18,337 nucleotides of DNA from a virus. Lineage: Duplodnaviria > Heunggongvirae > Uroviricota > Caudoviricetes. The stretch is taken from the IMG/VR virus record IMGVR_UViG_2657244986_000002; one strand, written 5' to 3'. Numbering within the stretch: the first letter of the stretch is position 1; each line of letters starts with the position of its first letter. Position numbers and translations under genes: made by a program. This document shows positions 1,141 through 7,716 of the stretch, one piece after another. The notes below the pieces were generated by a model, which saw only the letters and a list, made by a program, of their open reading frames with translations, was not told the DNA's origin and made no database searches.

Positions 1141-1761
1141 ATGACTCAAAACTATGAACTGGTTGTGAAAGGAGCCCGCAATTACGAGGATAAAGTTGCG
1201 GTAACTGTAGCATTACAGGACAAAGAACGCTTTGACGGTGAAATTTTTGACATGGTCATCACCATGGACTGTGTTGAAGGTGCCGCGCTGGAGTTTTATG
1301 AGGCAGCAGCCAGAATGAGCGCCAGGCAGGTCTTCCTGGGAGTGTCAGAAAAATTGTCAGAAAAAGTTGAGTCTTATCTGCAGCATCAGTACTCCATTAA
1401 GATTGAAAATCCTGCCAATAAACACGATCGTCCTCATCTTGCGGGTTATGGTAGTGCAGTTAAAACCAGCACCGGGCGCGCAGAGCAGGAAAAAAACGCC
1501 GTGGATGACATAAGTCGTGCGGTGGTTACTGTGGAGTTTCCGGGGCACGTGGCGTCAAGAGTGAAAGTTGGGAATGGTGGTGCTCCTGTGCTGACGAAAA
1601 TAATCGGCAGCAAGGTCAGTGTCTGGCTTGATGATGAAGAAGTGTTGTCGCTTATGTACAAAGAAGATTACGACCCGGTAATAACAACTTTCAGTGATCA
1701 CGAAGCAAGGGCAAGAGAGTACGCTTTATCGGTATTTGCAGCGATGCGAGCCGGGAATTAG
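1141..1761 (+). CDS. Hypothetical phage protein between holin and endolysin (possibly YdfR/DUF1327-related)
   Basis: 206-aa ORF starting 4 nt after the holin stop, same strand, no TM segment evident. The N-terminal ~100 aa resembles what I recall of small proteins found between holin and lysozyme genes in cryptic E. coli prophages; the family assignment is tentative. Confidence 0.6.
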   Translation: MTQNYELVVKGARNYEDKVAVTVALQDKERFDGEIFDMVITMDCVEGAALEFYEAAARMSARQVFLGVSEKLSEKVESYLQHQYSIKIENPANKHDRPHLAGYGSAVKTSTGRAEQEKNAVDDISRAVVTVEFPGHVASRVKVGNGGAPVLTKIIGSKVSVWLDDEEVLSLMYKEDYDPVITTFSDHEARAREYALSVFAAMRAGN

Positions 1762-1814
1762 CGACAACACCGTCACGAAAATGAGAAAGTACCTGCCACT
1801 CCTTATAAATATCT

Positions 1815-2353: not shown

Positions 2354-2866
2354 ATGTTTGCTAATGCTTGGTTGAAAGTTGCCACGGTTTCGGCTCTCCT
2401 CATTGCCTCATTTGTTGCAGGGAGTGTGTGGACGGAACGAGCATGGGAAAAGAAATGGGCGGATCGTAATAGTGAAGAATCCTCTCAGGCTGTGAACGCT
2501 CAGATAGCTGCTCGTATGATTGAACAAGGGCGAGTGATCGCTCGTGATGAGGCTGTTAAAAATGCACAAGAACAGGCTGCAAAAGCGGCTGCGAATGTTG
2601 CTGGCCTGTCTGCCACTGTTAACCAGCTGCGCACCGAAGCAACAAAACTTACCGTCCGCTTGGACGCTGCAAAGCACACCTCAGGTCTTGCCGTTGCCGT
2701 CGGAAGCAAAACAACCGCCACCAACGCCGCGATGCTTGCCGACATGCTCGGAAGTATTGCAGAAGAAGCTAGATACTATGCTGGGCGAGCTGATGAAAGT
2801 TACTTGGCTGGAATGACATGTGAACACATTTACGGCTCAGTGAGGGACTCAAGTAGTGTTAAATAG
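2354..2866 (+). CDS. Rz-like i-spanin (inner-membrane spanin subunit)
   Basis: N-terminal TM segment ([20 protein letters not shown]) followed by a long Ala/Gln/Glu-rich helical region; sits immediately after the endolysin; contains an embedded +1-frame lipoprotein ORF. Start uncertain: GTG 2327, GTG 2345 or ATG 2354. Confidence 0.8.
2595..2816 (+). CDS. Rz1-like o-spanin (outer-membrane lipoprotein) embedded in Rz in the +1 frame
   Basis: Internal ATG of the 2544..2816 ORF gives [12 protein letters not shown] with lipobox L-T-S-C, then a proline-rich mature region ([17 protein letters not shown]); wholly nested inside Rz as in lambda Rz/Rz1. Confidence 0.75.
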
Positions 2867-2916
2867 CTGGTATGATGATGTTGAGAAGGCGGCACAGCAG
2901 GAGCTGTAATCGACGA

Positions 2917-2931
2917 GTGCTAATCTAGCAC
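2917..2931. promoter_or_regulatory. Perfect palindrome GTGCTA-atc-TAGCAC just upstream of the predicted cargo promoter (possible operator)
   Basis: 6-bp perfect inverted repeat with 3-nt spacer, 8 bp upstream of the predicted -35; no following T-run, so not terminator-like. Confidence 0.3.
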
Positions 2932-2938
2932 AATTGAG

Positions 2939-2966
2939 TTCACAAATTGTCTACTTTTGCTATATT
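2939..2966 (+). promoter_or_regulatory. Sigma70-type promoter candidate for the two-gene cargo operon
   Basis: -35 TTCACA (2939-2944), 16-nt spacer, extended -10 TGcTATATT (TG at 2958-2959, hexamer 2961-2966); AT-rich context after the Rz stop. Confidence 0.45.
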
Positions 2967-2974
2967 GCAACCGA

Positions 2975-3034
2975 TGCCAACAGCCTTTTTTGAGCAAAAA
3001 TCATAAATGTTATCGTGTTGGCAGTTTTTTTCTT
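2975..3034 (+). promoter_or_regulatory. Structured leader: 8-bp inverted repeat TGCCAACA/TGTTGGCA enclosing an inner T5-GAGC-A5 hairpin, followed by a T-run (attenuator or upstream terminator)
   Basis: Arms at 2975-2982 and 3016-3023 are exact reverse complements; 33-nt loop contains TTTTTGAGCAAAAA; followed by GTTTTTTTCTTT ending about 20 nt before the gene A start. Confidence 0.35.
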
Positions 3035-3054
3035 TGACGACACGGAATGATTTT

Positions 3055-3477
3055 ATGTCAGAAGTAGCTGTTGAACTTGAAGAGGATTCTTGGCCTGATT
3101 TTTTCCCGGTTGGAGTACCGCCGAAATCAGCCGTCCCTGCTGAGGGCGAGTTTTTCCGTTTGGTAAGGTCTAATCCACCAACCCCTGCATGTTTCCTCTC
3201 TACACATGAAGAGTATCCGCAGCGGCACAAAAAGTATCGTGGGGAAGCACTTCAGTGTGTCTATGGAACATCATTCTTTTCAGAATCGCGCGGGGCTACG
3301 GATGCAAAAGCTAAATTTCCTGCAGCTCTTGGTCATCGACTCGTTGCTAGTGGTCAGATCACCCCCGTTTTCGGAGTAATGAAAAAAACATTTGCCGATC
3401 CAGCGCACTACACAATTTGGCTTAAGCGTAATTGTGCTATTCATGAACATTTTCACTGTATAGGAGAAGGCGTATGA
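3055..3477 (+). CDS. Hypothetical protein, gene A of two-gene cargo operon (unknown function)
   Basis: 140-aa ORF from the internal ATG of the 3007..3477 ORF (MSEVAVELEEDSW...); stop overlaps the start of the next gene (ATGA), implying translational coupling. No recognisable domain. C-terminus has C-x7-C with HEHFH between. Confidence 0.6.
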   Translation: MSEVAVELEEDSWPDFFPVGVPPKSAVPAEGEFFRLVRSNPPTPACFLSTHEEYPQRHKKYRGEALQCVYGTSFFSESRGATDAKAKFPAALGHRLVASGQITPVFGVMKKTFADPAHYTIWLKRNCAIHEHFHCIGEGV

Positions 3478-4766
3478 GTAACGTTTTTCTACCTAATACA
3501 ATGATGGGCACTCTATGTTACAAAAGAGTTTATGAGTTCTTCGAAGAGCCTCGCTTCTTTTCAGTTGAAAATGAAGTTAGTACACTTTTTATCGTTTACT
3601 GGATTGGTGAGGATGATGAATGTGATAGTTGGTTTATCATACCAATTTCTCCAGGGCGATTAGAGTTGATTGAAAGAAAAAGAATATGTATCCGTGATGC
3701 TTTGATTAATCAGGAGCAAAACTTTTTCTATGAAGCCCATATACCATACGATCGTACAGGCAAAGTGACTTGGCTGAGTAAAAACTTGGTTGATATATTT
3801 GAAATACCTTTGCCTGTTTCTGAACTATATATAAGTTCGGTAGTTCCAGTAATGCCAAATGGTAAACTGGGCGAGGCTATTACTTACTCAACTCATGAGA
3901 TCCATTTAGAAAAAAGCTCAAAGAAAAGTGCAAAAAATTTGGTTTTAAGTCATGTGTCAAACGTATGCGACAGATTCAGCGATCTTTATGACAGAATGCT
4001 GGAGATGGCAAAGTGCAAAGATAAATTACGTCCTGTCGATGCGCGGCCTGGTTCCTTTATCATTTCTTTTAAAGCTGAGAAATTACATTCCTTTGAAGAC
4101 ACTTTTAAAGAATTAAGCAGGCTGATAGAACTTAGAGCTGATATTATTCCTTTTGTTTTCGAAAAGGGTATTGATGTTCCAGCTTTGACAGATCTCTTAC
4201 AATCCATAGTTGAAACCGGAACGAATATGGAACTCAAAAGCAACCAGACAGGTGAATTAGCTTTTGTTATTACAAAAGCTGGTGCTGAGTTCTATTTAAA
4301 AAAATTATCACGTCTTTCTACCTCATTGGTTGGAGGGCATCAAATACCTCAAGCAGATGTCCTCGAGACAGTTTATAAATTAGTGGAAATTGTTTGGAGT
4401 GGCGAACCACTTACTCCTATTAATACTGGTTTGCAAGATAGACATATCTACTATTATAAGCATGCAGCTAAAGTTTTGGGATTACTTGATAGCTTTGGTA
4501 ATGTCACAACGTCTGGTCAACAACTCGTACAAAGTGATGAGATGACTAGACATAAAATTGCAGCGAGAAAATTTGAAGTGAGTCATGTGGGATGGGCTTG
4601 GATAAATTGGGCCAGTGTTGAACATTTATCCCAAATTGATCCTGACAGCGCTTTAGACTTTCTATTGGAGCAATGCCACTCTTTAAGTCGTGATACTATT
4701 GAACGACGTGCTACAACTATTAAACACTGGTGCCGTGAATTGAAAAATTATTATACACCTCTGTAA
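3474..4766 (+). CDS. Hypothetical protein, gene B of two-gene cargo operon (unknown function; candidate defense or accessory protein)
   Basis: 430-aa ORF with strong RBS AGGAGAAGG about 5 nt upstream; markedly AT-rich; no Walker A, TM segment or known catalytic motif visible by eye; followed by a clean terminator. Confidence 0.75.
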   Translation: MSNVFLPNTMMGTLCYKRVYEFFEEPRFFSVENEVSTLFIVYWIGEDDECDSWFIIPISPGRLELIERKRICIRDALINQEQNFFYEAHIPYDRTGKVTWLSKNLVDIFEIPLPVSELYISSVVPVMPNGKLGEAITYSTHEIHLEKSSKKSAKNLVLSHVSNVCDRFSDLYDRMLEMAKCKDKLRPVDARPGSFIISFKAEKLHSFEDTFKELSRLIELRADIIPFVFEKGIDVPALTDLLQSIVETGTNMELKSNQTGELAFVITKAGAEFYLKKLSRLSTSLVGGHQIPQADVLETVYKLVEIVWSGEPLTPINTGLQDRHIYYYKHAAKVLGLLDSFGNVTTSGQQLVQSDEMTRHKIAARKFEVSHVGWAWINWASVEHLSQIDPDSALDFLLEQCHSLSRDTIERRATTIKHWCRELKNYYTPL

Positions 4767-4793
4767 AGGATAATTTTCGTAGTTAACAATGAA

Positions 4794-4819
4794 CCACTGA
4801 CGTCTGTCGGTGGTTTTTT
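4794..4819 (+). terminator. Rho-independent terminator ending the cargo operon
   Basis: CCACTGAC-gtct-GTCGGTGG: 8-bp stem with one G-U pair and 4-nt loop, followed by TTTTTT; 27 nt after the gene B stop. Confidence 0.7.
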
Positions 4820-4884
4820 AATAGATAATTTCCCACTTATCCACTTGATTTTTGATGGGTCCTCCAAGTGGGGGGCCTGCCACG

Positions 4885-4901
4885 GGGCGGGAGCGTCGCG
4901 G
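4885..4901. other. Candidate cos site (cosN-like nicking region)
   Basis: GGGCGGGAGCGTCGCGG resembles the lambda cosN region GGGCGGCGACCTCGCGG as I recall it (identical flanks GGGCGG and TCGCGG), about 180 bp upstream of the Nu1-like gene. Not verified. Confidence 0.4.
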
Positions 4902-4947
4902 AAAAAGGCTAGTTTTTGCATTTCCATGGTGGCGGCAGCATGTTTGG

Positions 4948-4960
4948 TAATTTATTGATA
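4948..4960. promoter_or_regulatory. IHF-binding-site-like motif in putative cosB
   Basis: TAATTTATTGATA fits the complement of the IHF consensus WATCAANNNNTTR (YAANNNNTTGATW); lies about 50 bp downstream of the cosN-like sequence, as the I1 site does in lambda cosB. Confidence 0.35.
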
Positions 4961-5080
4961 ATTAAAAGTTATTTCTCTTTTCAGCTGTACAATATTTTTT
5001 TCTCCCTGTCATTAGACTAGTTTGCAATTAATTGAAATATATAAATAAACCTGATTTTCACCTGCCAGATGGAGTTGCTT

Positions 5081-5608
5081 ATGTCAAATGTGAGCGGGAT
5101 CGGTGATGCTTATTACTGGAGTGTTTTTAAAATCGCCGAGGCCTTTGGGCTTCACCGGGACACAGTAAAAAAACGGCTCCTCGCGGCCAACACTCCTGTG
5201 GCTGCGACTGTCAGGGGGAACCCCGTTTACGCCCTGCAGCATGTCGGGCCTGCCCTGTTTAGTGTGAAGCATGAGGCAGCAGACTCTGTTCATGATCCAT
5301 CCCGTATGGAGCCGAAAGAGAGAAAGGACTGGTACCAGTCGGAAAATGAAAGGATCAAGTTGGAAAAGGAGCAGCGAAAACTCATCCCCGTTGATGAAGT
5401 AGTCATCGTCTATTCGTCCATGAGAAAGGCTGTCGTCCAGGTTCTGGAGACAATTCCGGATGTTCTTGAACGCGATTGCGCCCTGACTCCTCAGGCCGTT
5501 GGCGTTGTACAGCAGGCCATTGATGACCTGCGATACACTCTTCAGGAAAAATCCTACGAGGCTTGTGCTGCTGAATTAATTCCTGATGAGGAAGGAGAGA
5601 GTCTCTAG
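5081..5608 (+). CDS. Terminase small subunit (lambda Nu1-like)
   Basis: Position directly upstream of the gpA-like large terminase and downstream of the cos-like sequence; N-terminal HTH-like region (YYWSVFKIAEAFGLHRDTVKKRL) and acidic C-terminus, as in Nu1. GGAG precedes the ATG at 5081; the ORF-track start 5069 is an alternative. Confidence 0.75.
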   Translation: MSNVSGIGDAYYWSVFKIAEAFGLHRDTVKKRLLAANTPVAATVRGNPVYALQHVGPALFSVKHEAADSVHDPSRMEPKERKDWYQSENERIKLEKEQRKLIPVDEVVIVYSSMRKAVVQVLETIPDVLERDCALTPQAVGVVQQAIDDLRYTLQEKSYEACAAELIPDEEGESL

Positions 5609-5616
5609 GAGGAATA

Positions 5617-7716
5617 ATGGGTTTTTCATCAGCCCGAAATTTGGGAAGGGACATATCGGCAGGATTTTCCCCACCACGTCGCATGCCGATTTCGGAGGCT
5701 GTTAAAAAATTCATGCGTGTTCCCAAGGGGGCTGGTAACTCGGTGCCATGGGATCCTGAACTGACACCCTACATCATTGAGCCCATGAACTGCCTGGCAT
5801 CGCGTGAATACGATGCGGTGATTTTTGTTGGTCCTGCGCGAACAGGGAAGACCATTGGTCTGATCGATGGATGGATTGTCTATACCATCGTTTGCGATCC
5901 TTCGGACATGCTCGTTGTGCAGATGACCGAAGATAAGGCCCGCGAGCATTCAAAAAAGCGCCTCGACAGAACGTTCAGAAGCAGTGCGGCGGTAAAGAAA
6001 AGAATGAGTCCACGTCGTAATGACAATAATGTCCATGATAAGACGTTCAGGGATGGCTCGTTCCTTAAAATTGGTTGGCCCTCGGTCAACATTATGTCGT
6101 CGTCGGATTACCGGTTTGTCGCCTTAACCGATTACGACCGTTTTCCGGAGAATATCGACAGCGAGGGTGATGGTTTCTCCCTGGCCTCAAAACGTACCAC
6201 CACATTTATGTCCGCCGGGATGACTCTGGTGGAGAGCTCGCCGGGACGTGACATCTGCGACAGCAAATGGCGACGTAAGTCGCCTCATGAAGCGCCACCG
6301 ACGACTGGTATTCTTTCCCTTTACAATCGTGGTGACCGCCGCCGCTGGTACTGGCCATGTCCGCACTGCGGTGAATATTTTCAGCCAGCCATGGATGCCA
6401 TGACCGGCTACCGTAATGAACCGGATCCCTTTAAAGCCAGTGAGGCGGCGTATCTACTTTGCCCGCACTGCAGCGGCATTATCACTGCGGAGAAAAAGCG
6501 TGAGCTCAATAGTGCAGGAGTCTGGTTGCGTGAAGGTCAGGTCATTGATTGTAACGGCAACGTTTCCGGTGAACCGCGCCGCTCCCGTATCGCCAGTTTC
6601 TGGATGGAAGGGCCAGCTGCTGCGTATCAGACCTGGGCGCAACTGGTTTACAAATTACTGACTGCAGAACAGGAGTATGAAGCGACAGGAAGTGAAGAAA
6701 CACTCAGGGCGGTTATCAACACCGACTGGGGATTACCTTATCTTCCCCGCGCCAGCATGGAGCAACGAAAAAGTGAACTGCTTGAGCAGCGGGCAGAGCC
6801 AGTTCCTTCCCGCAGTGTGCCAGATGGCGTTAATTTTCTTGTGGCGACAGTGGATGTGCAGGCGGGACGTCATCGCCGTTTTGTGGTTCAGGTAACGGGC
6901 TATGGCAGCCGTGGCGAACGCTGGATTATTGATCGTTACAACATCACGCAGTCATTGCGCGGTGACAGCGACGGGGAGAGCCAGCGAATTGATCCGGCCA
7001 GCTATCCGGAAGACTGGGATGTCCTGCTGACGGATGTTTTTCATAAAAGCTGGCCGCTGGCCTCCGATCCTTCTCAACAAATGCGACTGATGGCAATGGC
7101 GGTGGACTCCGGCGGTGAAGACGGGGTCACTGATAATGCCTATAAATTCTGGCGTCGTTGCCGTCGTGATGGCCTTGGTAAACGTATTTACCTGTTTAAG
7201 GGCGACAGCATCCGGCGCGCAAAACTGATCACCCGTACATTCCCTGATAACACCGGACGAACGGGCCGACGGGCGCAGGCCGCAGGTGATGTGCCGCTCT
7301 GGCTTCTTCAGACGGATGCACTGAAAGACCGGGTGAATAACGCGTTATGGCGTGACTCGCCAGGTCCCGGCTATGTGCATTTCCCTGACTGGCTGGGGAG
7401 CTGGTTTTACGACGAACTGACGTATGAAGAGCGGAGCAGTGACGGGAAATGGAGTAAGCCGGGTCGCGGTGCCAACGAAGCTTTTGACCTGATGGTGTAT
7501 GCCGAGGCTCTGGTCATTCTGCATGGATACGAAAAGATCCGCTGGCCGGATGCACCGGAGTGGGCGAGCCGGGAAACCTGGCTGGAGTGTGTCCCGGACA
7601 GTACCGAACCGTCATCCTCACCGGAACCGGTATCCACGCCTGTTAAAAAACAAAAACGGAAGAAAACAGTAACTGACGATGTTAACCCCTGGCTGACTTC
7701 CGGAGGATGGTTATGA
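5617..7716 (+). CDS. Terminase large subunit (lambda gpA family)
   Basis: 699 aa; contains a WPCPHCGEYFQ motif matching lambda gpA (ACPHCGEE) and a Walker-A-like GPARTGKT; strong RBS AGGAGG; stop overlaps the next gene. Confidence 0.9.
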   Translation: MGFSSARNLGRDISAGFSPPRRMPISEAVKKFMRVPKGAGNSVPWDPELTPYIIEPMNCLASREYDAVIFVGPARTGKTIGLIDGWIVYTIVCDPSDMLVVQMTEDKAREHSKKRLDRTFRSSAAVKKRMSPRRNDNNVHDKTFRDGSFLKIGWPSVNIMSSSDYRFVALTDYDRFPENIDSEGDGFSLASKRTTTFMSAGMTLVESSPGRDICDSKWRRKSPHEAPPTTGILSLYNRGDRRRWYWPCPHCGEYFQPAMDAMTGYRNEPDPFKASEAAYLLCPHCSGIITAEKKRELNSAGVWLREGQVIDCNGNVSGEPRRSRIASFWMEGPAAAYQTWAQLVYKLLTAEQEYEATGSEETLRAVINTDWGLPYLPRASMEQRKSELLEQRAEPVPSRSVPDGVNFLVATVDVQAGRHRRFVVQVTGYGSRGERWIIDRYNITQSLRGDSDGESQRIDPASYPEDWDVLLTDVFHKSWPLASDPSQQMRLMAMAVDSGGEDGVTDNAYKFWRRCRRDGLGKRIYLFKGDSIRRAKLITRTFPDNTGRTGRRAQAAGDVPLWLLQTDALKDRVNNALWRDSPGPGYVHFPDWLGSWFYDELTYEERSSDGKWSKPGRGANEAFDLMVYAEALVILHGYEKIRWPDAPEWASRETWLECVPDSTEPSSSPEPVSTPVKKQKRKKTVTDDVNPWLTSGGWL

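Follow-up and report, generated by a model that had tools for sequence, protein, structure and literature searches.

What might a lambdoid prophage gain from a pair of apparently self-contained genes placed between its lysis and packaging functions? This question is raised by an 18,337-nucleotide (nt) stretch of DNA (IMG/VR virus record IMGVR_UViG_2657244986_000002; hereafter, the window), which represents the late part of an Escherichia coli prophage of the lambdoid (Qin-like) kind. The pair consists of gene A (3055-3477, plus strand), encoding a protein of 140 amino acids (aa), and gene B (3474-4766, plus strand), encoding one of 430 aa. The two overlap by the sequence ATGA at 3474-3477, such that the start of B sits within the stop codon of A. 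A sequence-only reading of this region had described the unit as wholly uncharacterised, had seen no recognisable motif in either product, and had guessed at an anti-phage or other accessory role. We found that B is a member of the DUF6575 family and that A is homologous to the first protein of PD-T4-10, a divergent member of the same wider family that has already been tested experimentally. Overall, we favor as the probable interpretation that the cassette is a self-transcribed, prophage-borne DUF6575 two-gene unit serving as a toxin-antitoxin-like abortive-infection defence in the manner of PD-T4-10.

Homology of the cassette to the PD-T4-10 defence system

PD-T4-10 was described as a pair of overlapping genes from E. 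coli ECOR65 (Vassallo et al. 2022, Nat Microbiol, PMC9519451). In that study, the B protein was toxic when produced alone, whereas A alone was not; A neutralised B and could not be deleted; T4 resistance was lost upon deletion of B; and the phenotype was abortive infection directed at T-even phages. HHpred searches by the same authors returned nothing for either protein (PMC9519451). When the two PADLOC models for PD-T4-10 (PDLC04023 and PDLC04024) were applied, A matched PD-T4-10_A at E = 8e-6 over model positions 25-144 of 148, with relatives of A reaching 2e-10, while the window B protein matched PD-T4-10_B over model positions 35-92 of 353 only. The PD-T4-10_B match was also obtained with all eight of the eight B relatives that possess the N-terminal domain (positions ~19-146, best E = 1e-11) and with neither of two relatives that lack it.

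To compare the window with the real PD-T4-10 locus, the 48-nt A/B junction was rebuilt from the cloning primers in Table S8 of the published study and used as a genome search query, which found the junction in 13 of 5426 E. coli genomes. The locus (L076, 8506-12026) encodes a PD-T4-10A of 171 aa and a PD-T4-10B of 363 aa that likewise share an ATGA overlap, and the pair is located in a P2-like prophage, 3' of a replication endonuclease gene and 5' of a truncated portal gene, with an AIPR-family gene directly 3' of the pair. A profile of the window A family aligned with the real PD-T4-10A over 118 columns (hhalign, 95% probability, E = 3.8e-8). For the B proteins, both hhalign and BLASTP placed the homology in residues 41-84 only; thus, it does not run along the full length of B, and the remaining 290 residues have no counterpart in PD-T4-10B. 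RefSeq labels PD-T4-10B as DUF6575, even though its Pfam DUF6575 score of 22.9 bits falls under the cut-off of 26.6, whereas the window B protein reaches 129.3 bits (PF20215, E = 1.8e-37) with residues 3-221 aligned to model positions 2-214 of 218. Given 129 versus 22.9 bits, the window encodes a core DUF6575 member and PD-T4-10 is the divergent outlier, and since full-length B homology fails, the window pair should not be filed as PD-T4-10 itself. That A is homologous to PD-T4-10A, and B to PD-T4-10B in the N-terminal domain, nonetheless lends support at the sequence level to the earlier guess of an anti-phage role. Among the papers searched, the term DUF6575 was found in no paper other than the Vassallo study, and the RefSeq accessions of A and B were found in none.

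Protein A has a predicted ADP-ribosyltransferase-like fold

Searches with A itself gave little: it belongs to no Pfam family and matches no curated ADP-ribosyltransferase or RES profile, a Pfam scan of 40 of its relatives at E up to 10 yielded no recurrent match of either kind, and the A-family profile found nothing among Protein Data Bank (PDB) sequences at E up to 10. Its structure model has a predicted local distance difference test score (pLDDT) of 88.3 and a predicted template modelling score (pTM) of 0.82, and the predicted fold is the split beta-sheet ADP-ribosyltransferase fold, resembling both ADP-ribosyltransferase and RES-type toxins. Together with the DUF6575 assignment of B, this prediction replaces the earlier statement that neither protein has a recognisable motif. 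An alignment of 16 proteins, including those of Vibrio cholerae and Oscillatoria as well as PD-T4-10A, contains invariant residues at P22, P23, R35, F47, S73, G100, G107, H118, and F133. In the model, strand 1 contains R35, strand 2 contains S73, and H118 is found where strand 5 begins. Cholera-toxin-type ADP-ribosyltransferases have their R-S-E residues in those same strands, and from strand positions rather than from superposition, we infer that R35, S73, and H118 correspond to the R-S-E positions in the modelled fold. Position 118 is an invariant His, and A has no catalytic Glu of the type found in R-S-E or H-Y-E triads. A also has no helix-turn-helix or ribbon-helix-helix domain and thus lacks this feature of classical type II antitoxins.

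The invariance of R35, S73, and H118 from E. coli to Oscillatoria and PD-T4-10A, in the very strands that carry R-S-E, could be taken to mean that A is an active ADP-ribosyltransferase or RES-like enzyme using nicotinamide adenine dinucleotide (NAD+). Such an enzyme might modify B covalently, or it might be the true effector of the pair, with B serving as a sensor or regulator that detects phage DNA and controls A, a role for which the putative winged-helix domain of B could supply nucleic acid binding. We consider this rather unlikely, because it is B and not A that is toxic when alone in PD-T4-10 (PMC9519451), the catalytic glutamate is replaced by histidine, no ADP-ribosyltransferase profile matches A or its 39 relatives, and the residue equivalences come from secondary-structure positions, not from superposition. 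A specific form of this idea, which we likewise view as doubtful, is that A represents a catalytically active new branch of ADP-ribosyltransferases with an R-S-H site, acting as an enzymatic antitoxin that modifies B in an NAD+-dependent manner as in type VII systems; a phage infection would then break this control, for instance by altering NAD+ or by way of ADP-ribosylation enzymes that the phage brings. If true, A and the N-terminal part of DUF6575 would constitute a portable switch fitted to at least three effector modules.

Modular architecture of protein B and the pairing of A with its N-terminal domain

B has 47 full-length homologues at 40-95% identity, and its AlphaFold2 model has a pLDDT of 89.7. 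Based upon the model and the alignment of homologues, B can be divided into three domains: an N-terminal beta-rich domain (~aa 1-139; 3474-3890, plus strand), which includes the part in common with PD-T4-10B; a middle alpha/beta domain (~aa 140-284; 3891-4325, plus strand), in which T140-H141-E142 and R191-P-G-S-F195 are invariant; and a C-terminal helical domain (~aa 285-430; 4326-4763, plus strand) that probably corresponds to DUF7226 and is modelled as a tandem winged-helix module. Foldseek comparison of the whole B model with the PDB gave nothing below E = 0.29, so the N-terminal and middle domains are without a known fold, and no PDB sequence was matched by the B-family profile at E up to 10. 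The DUF7226 match (PF23871) covers residues 319-420 at 22.8 bits (E = 9.4e-5), under the gathering cut-off of 27 bits; the same domain is part of the precomputed annotation of several close B homologues, and proteins of other architectures reach 30-35 bits. At the level of the predicted fold, the C-terminal domain resembles BrxA, the FokI recognition domain, and SspB, as well as MarR-type winged-helix DNA binders, and in the models it is the sole DNA-binding-like domain of the pair. Two further candidate features were rejected. A membrane helix, suspected from weak published HHpred hits for PD-T4-10B, is not supported by the hydropathy of either protein (maximum over 19 residues of 1.2 for PD-T4-10B and 1.3 for B), and upon inspection, the conserved residues of the middle domain fit neither a PD-(D/E)xK nor an HExxH motif.

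A search of 1.84 billion representative proteins with the B-family profile returned 1842 at E up to 1e-3. These include many full-length relatives of ~430 aa and also proteins of 500-560 aa that contain just the portion equivalent to B residues ~140-430, while residues ~285-430 occur as free-standing proteins as well. One such 554-aa protein aligns with B ~140-430 at 99.8% probability (hhalign). At the two loci inspected (L079, 4663-7243, and L078, 847-2876), the ~550-aa protein is encoded together with an overlapping upstream partner of 113 aa that is unrelated to A; the partners of the two examples are 43% identical to each other. The 554-aa protein (L079/L080) adjoins genes for an MmeI-type restriction-modification protein, an MT-A70 methylase, and an SNF2 helicase. 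From its sequence organization, this ~550-aa and 113-aa pair looks like another uncharacterised two-gene system built upon the same C-terminal module.

The opposite arrangement was found on the conjugative plasmid pOSC7112.01 of Oscillatoria nigro-viridis (L066, 3560-5197), where a homologue of A (hhalign 97.7%, E = 2e-12) lies directly 5' of the gene for a 404-aa DUF6575 protein that aligns with B over residues 7-199 only. This plasmid pair is situated just 3' of a large DEAD/DEAH helicase gene. A and the N-terminal part of DUF6575 can thus be considered one module, because they are paired with at least three different C-terminal regions, namely those of the window B family, of PD-T4-10B, and of the Oscillatoria protein. 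No part of B other than the DUF6575 N-terminal domain accompanies A in every branch of the family. The middle domain and DUF7226 together make up another module by the same sequence comparisons, one that occurs with two or more combinations of N-terminal domain and small partner.

Transcription signals of the cassette

The cassette is preceded by a putative sigma-70-like promoter (2939-2966, plus strand) consisting of a -35 element TTCACA at 2939-2944, a 16-nt spacer, and the extended -10 element TGcTATATT at 2958-2966. This site scores 10 of 12 consensus matches and has the TG of an extended -10; promoter-like sites as such show no excess in the region (3 versus 5.9 expected from shuffles). 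Better evidence comes from conservation, as an extended -10 of the form TG(C/T)TATATT is present at a constant distance from a downstream leader motif in 25 distinct leaders, including those of homologues that are just 42-47% identical and of the subfamily located between antiterminator Q and holin. The putative promoter is therefore supported by its conservation and not by the match itself. Within the window, the leader motif (2974-3031, plus strand) comprises ATGCCAAC at 2974-2981, a variable spacer, GTTGGCAG at 3017-3024, and a T7 run at 3025-3031. Its general order is the extended -10, 7-8 nt, an invariant ATGCCA(A), a variable spacer of 28-53 nt, an invariant (T)TGGCAG, and a T-rich run. 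Neither arm varies among 17 aligned leaders, and the two could pair over 7-8 bp. Covariation between them is about nil, the leaders fold no better than shuffles (z of -0.4 to -1.0), and Rfam has no family within 2850-5100. Judged from the sequence, the motif could be an attenuator, a stabilizing 5' hairpin, or a pair of protein-binding sites. Translation of A most likely begins at the MSE... start, as this is conserved among homologues, whereas an in-frame ATG further upstream at 3007 is not. At its other end, the cassette is closed by a predicted intrinsic terminator (4791-4819, plus strand) with an 11-bp stem (4791-4801/4806-4816), a GUCU loop, and a T-run to 4819. The hairpin has a folding energy of -16 kcal/mol in RNAfold (z = -3.3, with 1 of 200 shuffles equally good), and it was overlooked by a simple terminator scanner.

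The cassette occupies a cargo-exchange site and is under purifying selection

Comparison of the window with a sister prophage of the same backbone (L077) by blastn revealed that the two are homologous up to position 2832 and again from 4857, where the match resumes with 99.9% identity. The intervening segment (2833-4856) is a swapped cargo cassette, as its counterpart in the sister prophage (L077, 2443-4740) contains cspI, ymcF, ynfN, gnsB, and a hypothetical gene. Since the same backbone holds other cargo at this junction, the junction is a cargo-exchange hot spot with sharp borders. The base composition of the two genes also deviates from that of their surroundings: A has a guanine-plus-cytosine (GC) content of 46.8% and B one of 37.0%, whereas the lysis genes stand at 49% and the terminase and portal genes at 54%. 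The earlier description of the unit as an AT-rich moron is thus borne out at the sequence level, with the promoter-like site, the two ATGA-overlapping genes, and the terminator all found where they had been placed, the deviant GC content, and the exact exchange for other cargo in a near-identical prophage.

Of the complete E. coli genomes examined (5426), 210 contain 80% or more of the window, but only 8 contain the A-B unit; in strain LR-45, the unit resides inside a defective Qin-like prophage remnant. A scan of IMG/VR yielded 58 prophage loci with a B homologue, and a scan of a genome collection with the B alignment gave 9 species representatives. We inspected 57 loci, comprising 55 of the 58 IMG/VR loci plus L002 and L006, and found an A homologue directly 5' of B in 56 of them, with an ATGA overlap in 51 and a gap of 8-10 nt in 5. 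Homologous pairs occur at no fewer than three kinds of cargo site in unrelated prophages: after the lysis genes and before terminase (the window and others), between antiterminator Q and holin (L002 and ~20 loci), and adjoining the integrase (V. cholerae). Such mobility is typical of defence cargo. The two proteins also diverge together, A being 46-47% identical where B is 43-48% identical. In unsaturated comparisons, the ratio of nonsynonymous to synonymous substitution rates (dN/dS) was 0.04-0.11 over both genes (0.04-0.10 for B), indicating strong purifying selection; thus, A and B are not pseudogenes.

Proposed mechanism and alternative explanations

In the proposed mechanism for the abortive-infection reading, translational coupling would ensure that A and B are made together, and A would keep B harmless by acting upon its DUF6575 N-terminal domain. 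An infecting phage would upset the balance between A and B, leading to the release of B, whereupon the middle domain and the BrxA/FokI-like winged-helix module could act on DNA and arrest the cell before phage progeny are made, with the outcome that the lysogen population is protected. Our own analysis speaks directly to gene anatomy, homology, modularity, predicted folds, cargo-site mobility, and selection, while the toxicity of B, its neutralisation by A, and the abortive infection against T-even phages derive from the PD-T4-10 experiments. What we infer beyond both is that A acts via the B N-terminal domain, that the effector or targeting part is the winged-helix domain, what the trigger is, and any enzymatic activity of A.

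Several observations weigh against this reading. The homology to PD-T4-10 takes in A but no more than roughly a third of B, and the B-family profile aligned with PD-T4-10B over just 42 columns, spanning residues 41-82, with 41% probability (hhalign). The toxicity and defence phenotype come from a system outside the window subfamily, and if the toxic part of PD-T4-10B is its unrelated C-terminal region, the toxicity would not carry over. A defence classifier would probably miss the pair, as the B match covers 16% of the PD-T4-10_B model, and PHROGs and NCBIfam contain no match for A or B. An ADP-ribosyltransferase fold is normally that of a toxin, not of an antitoxin. In 50,697 deposited phage genomes, tblastn searches with A and B and a megablast search with the unit gave no match. 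Lastly, at one locus on a 6-kb IMG/VR contig (L017, 1427-1926), the A homologue is split over three frames while B is intact, which reflects either an error in sequencing or a natural state in which A is lost and B kept; the second would be surprising if B kills cells that lack A.

The same toxin-antitoxin-like anatomy and PD-T4-10 homology would also suit an addiction module that stabilises the prophage or the cassette and offers no protection against other phages. The persistence of the unit in the defective LR-45 remnant and its rarity, with 8 of 5426 genomes, agree with this idea. We judge it unlikely nevertheless, because the sole relative that has been tested protects against T-even phages and requires B to do so (PMC9519451), and because the prophage cargo sites, as well as the restriction-modification neighbours of related architectures, fit defence. 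Still less probable, in our estimation, is that the pair is non-defence cargo in which B binds DNA to regulate host or prophage genes, with A as its cofactor, and which confers some other benefit on the lysogen. The modelled resemblance of the B C-terminal domain to MarR-type and other winged-helix DNA binders, the presence of the stress genes cspI and gnsB at the same junction in sister prophages, and a conserved leader motif that could be an operator would all accommodate such a role; it is countered by the PD-T4-10 homology, by the size of B, which at 430 aa and with two further conserved domains is far bigger than a simple regulator, and by the occurrence of the middle and C-terminal module beside restriction-modification genes. 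That the two frames are decaying, unexpressed remnants, as might be imagined from the copy in a defective prophage and the frameshifted A at one homologous locus, is effectively refuted by the low dN/dS of both genes, along with their intactness and retained overlap in 56 of 57 loci, the conserved promoter and terminator, and the confident structure models of both proteins.

Surroundings of the cassette in the window

As had been stated by the sequence-only reading, the unit is located between the Rz-like gene and the terminase genes. Upstream of it are a P21-type holin gene (837-1136), a DUF1327 gene (1141-1761), a lysozyme gene (1815-2348), and the Rz-like DUF2514 gene, which ends at 2866. 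Downstream are a small-terminase-like DUF1441 gene (5069-5608) and the gene for a gpA-type large terminase (5617-7716), past which lies a lambda-type portal gene. Just 5' of the holin gene, there is also a gene for an AraC-type helix-turn-helix protein of 240 aa (8-730) with a GC content of 31-35%, which has the appearance of another AT-rich cargo gene within this prophage. The DUF1327 frame is 206 aa in the window; the sister prophage L077 is without ~360 bp of it (window 1439-1798), and its ydfR is 103 aa. In LR-45, the DNA at this gene is 99.9% identical to the window, and the gene is annotated as a truncated pseudogene. Beyond the cassette, a GC-rich stretch (4857-4900), GGGGGGCCTGCCACGGGGCGGGAGCGTCGCGG, starts exactly where the L077 homology resumes, ~170 bp before the small-terminase-like gene, and from its sequence and position it may be the candidate cos region that had been assumed at this junction.

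Significance and comparison with known systems

PD-T4-10 is a validated anti-phage system whose mechanism is unexplained, and the window pair is a core member of the wider DUF6575 two-gene family that also includes PD-T4-10; by this analysis, it probably works in a similar way. From the comparison come the first hypotheses on structure and modularity for this family. The new elements are predictions from models and alignments: an ADP-ribosyltransferase-like fold and an R-S-H residue set for the neutralising protein, a BrxA/FokI-like domain in B, and a two-module picture in which the neutralising protein A is always paired with the DUF6575 N-terminal domain while the C-terminal region is exchangeable. 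They define targets for mutagenesis, namely R35, S73, and H118 in A and T140-H141-E142 and R191-F195 in B. The results also suggest that current defence classifiers miss most of the DUF6575 two-gene family, and they document that cargo is exchanged at a hot spot of an E. coli prophage that is common.

The window pair and PD-T4-10 share their two-gene organization with the small gene first and an ATGA overlap, the conserved R, S, and H of A, and a homologous N-terminal DUF6575 segment in B. Both also reside at prophage cargo hot spots, of the P2 type for PD-T4-10, and both exhibit an asymmetry in GC content (in PD-T4-10, A is ~45-46% and B ~38-39%, with flanks of 51-56%). They differ in the lengths of A (140 versus 171 aa) and B (430 versus 363 aa), and past approximately residue 120 the B proteins are unrelated, with PD-T4-10B lacking the middle and DUF7226 winged-helix domains and having the marginal DUF6575 score given above. 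The window pair follows the lysis genes of a lambdoid prophage, whereas PD-T4-10 sits beside an AIPR gene in a P2-like prophage; inspection by eye of the 220 nt preceding PD-T4-10A did not reveal the leader motif; and PD-T4-10 has been tested experimentally, while the window pair is known from sequence and models.

Compared with systems whose toxins have an ADP-ribosyltransferase fold (RES-Xre, ParT-ParS, MbcT-MbcA, DarT-DarG, and CmdT), the difference lies in the role of the protein with this fold, which is the toxin in those systems, whereas the PD-T4-10 homologue of A acts as the antitoxin. A further differs from those toxins in having His rather than a catalytic Glu at the start of strand 5 and in having no sequence-profile match to ADP-ribosyltransferase or RES families, and its partner B is not an Xre, macrodomain, or ParS-type antitoxin. 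The likeness of B to BrxA of BREX, to the FokI and N.BspD6I recognition domains, and to SspB is at the level of the fold, with 7-13% identity and no sequence-profile match. Unlike these proteins, the B module is fused to DUF6575 and a middle domain of unknown fold, and unlike the BREX and Ssp systems, the window pair has no methylase, nuclease, or other BREX or Ssp gene nearby. The cassette is like the lambda bor and lom and Qin-type cspI-gnsB morons in its arrangement, since these are also promoter-gene-terminator units of deviant GC content between late-gene modules, and the cspI-ymcF-ynfN-gnsB cargo occupies the exact site of the window cassette in the sister prophage. It is distinguished from them by its content, which is a toxin-antitoxin-like pair instead of a lipoprotein or cold-shock genes.

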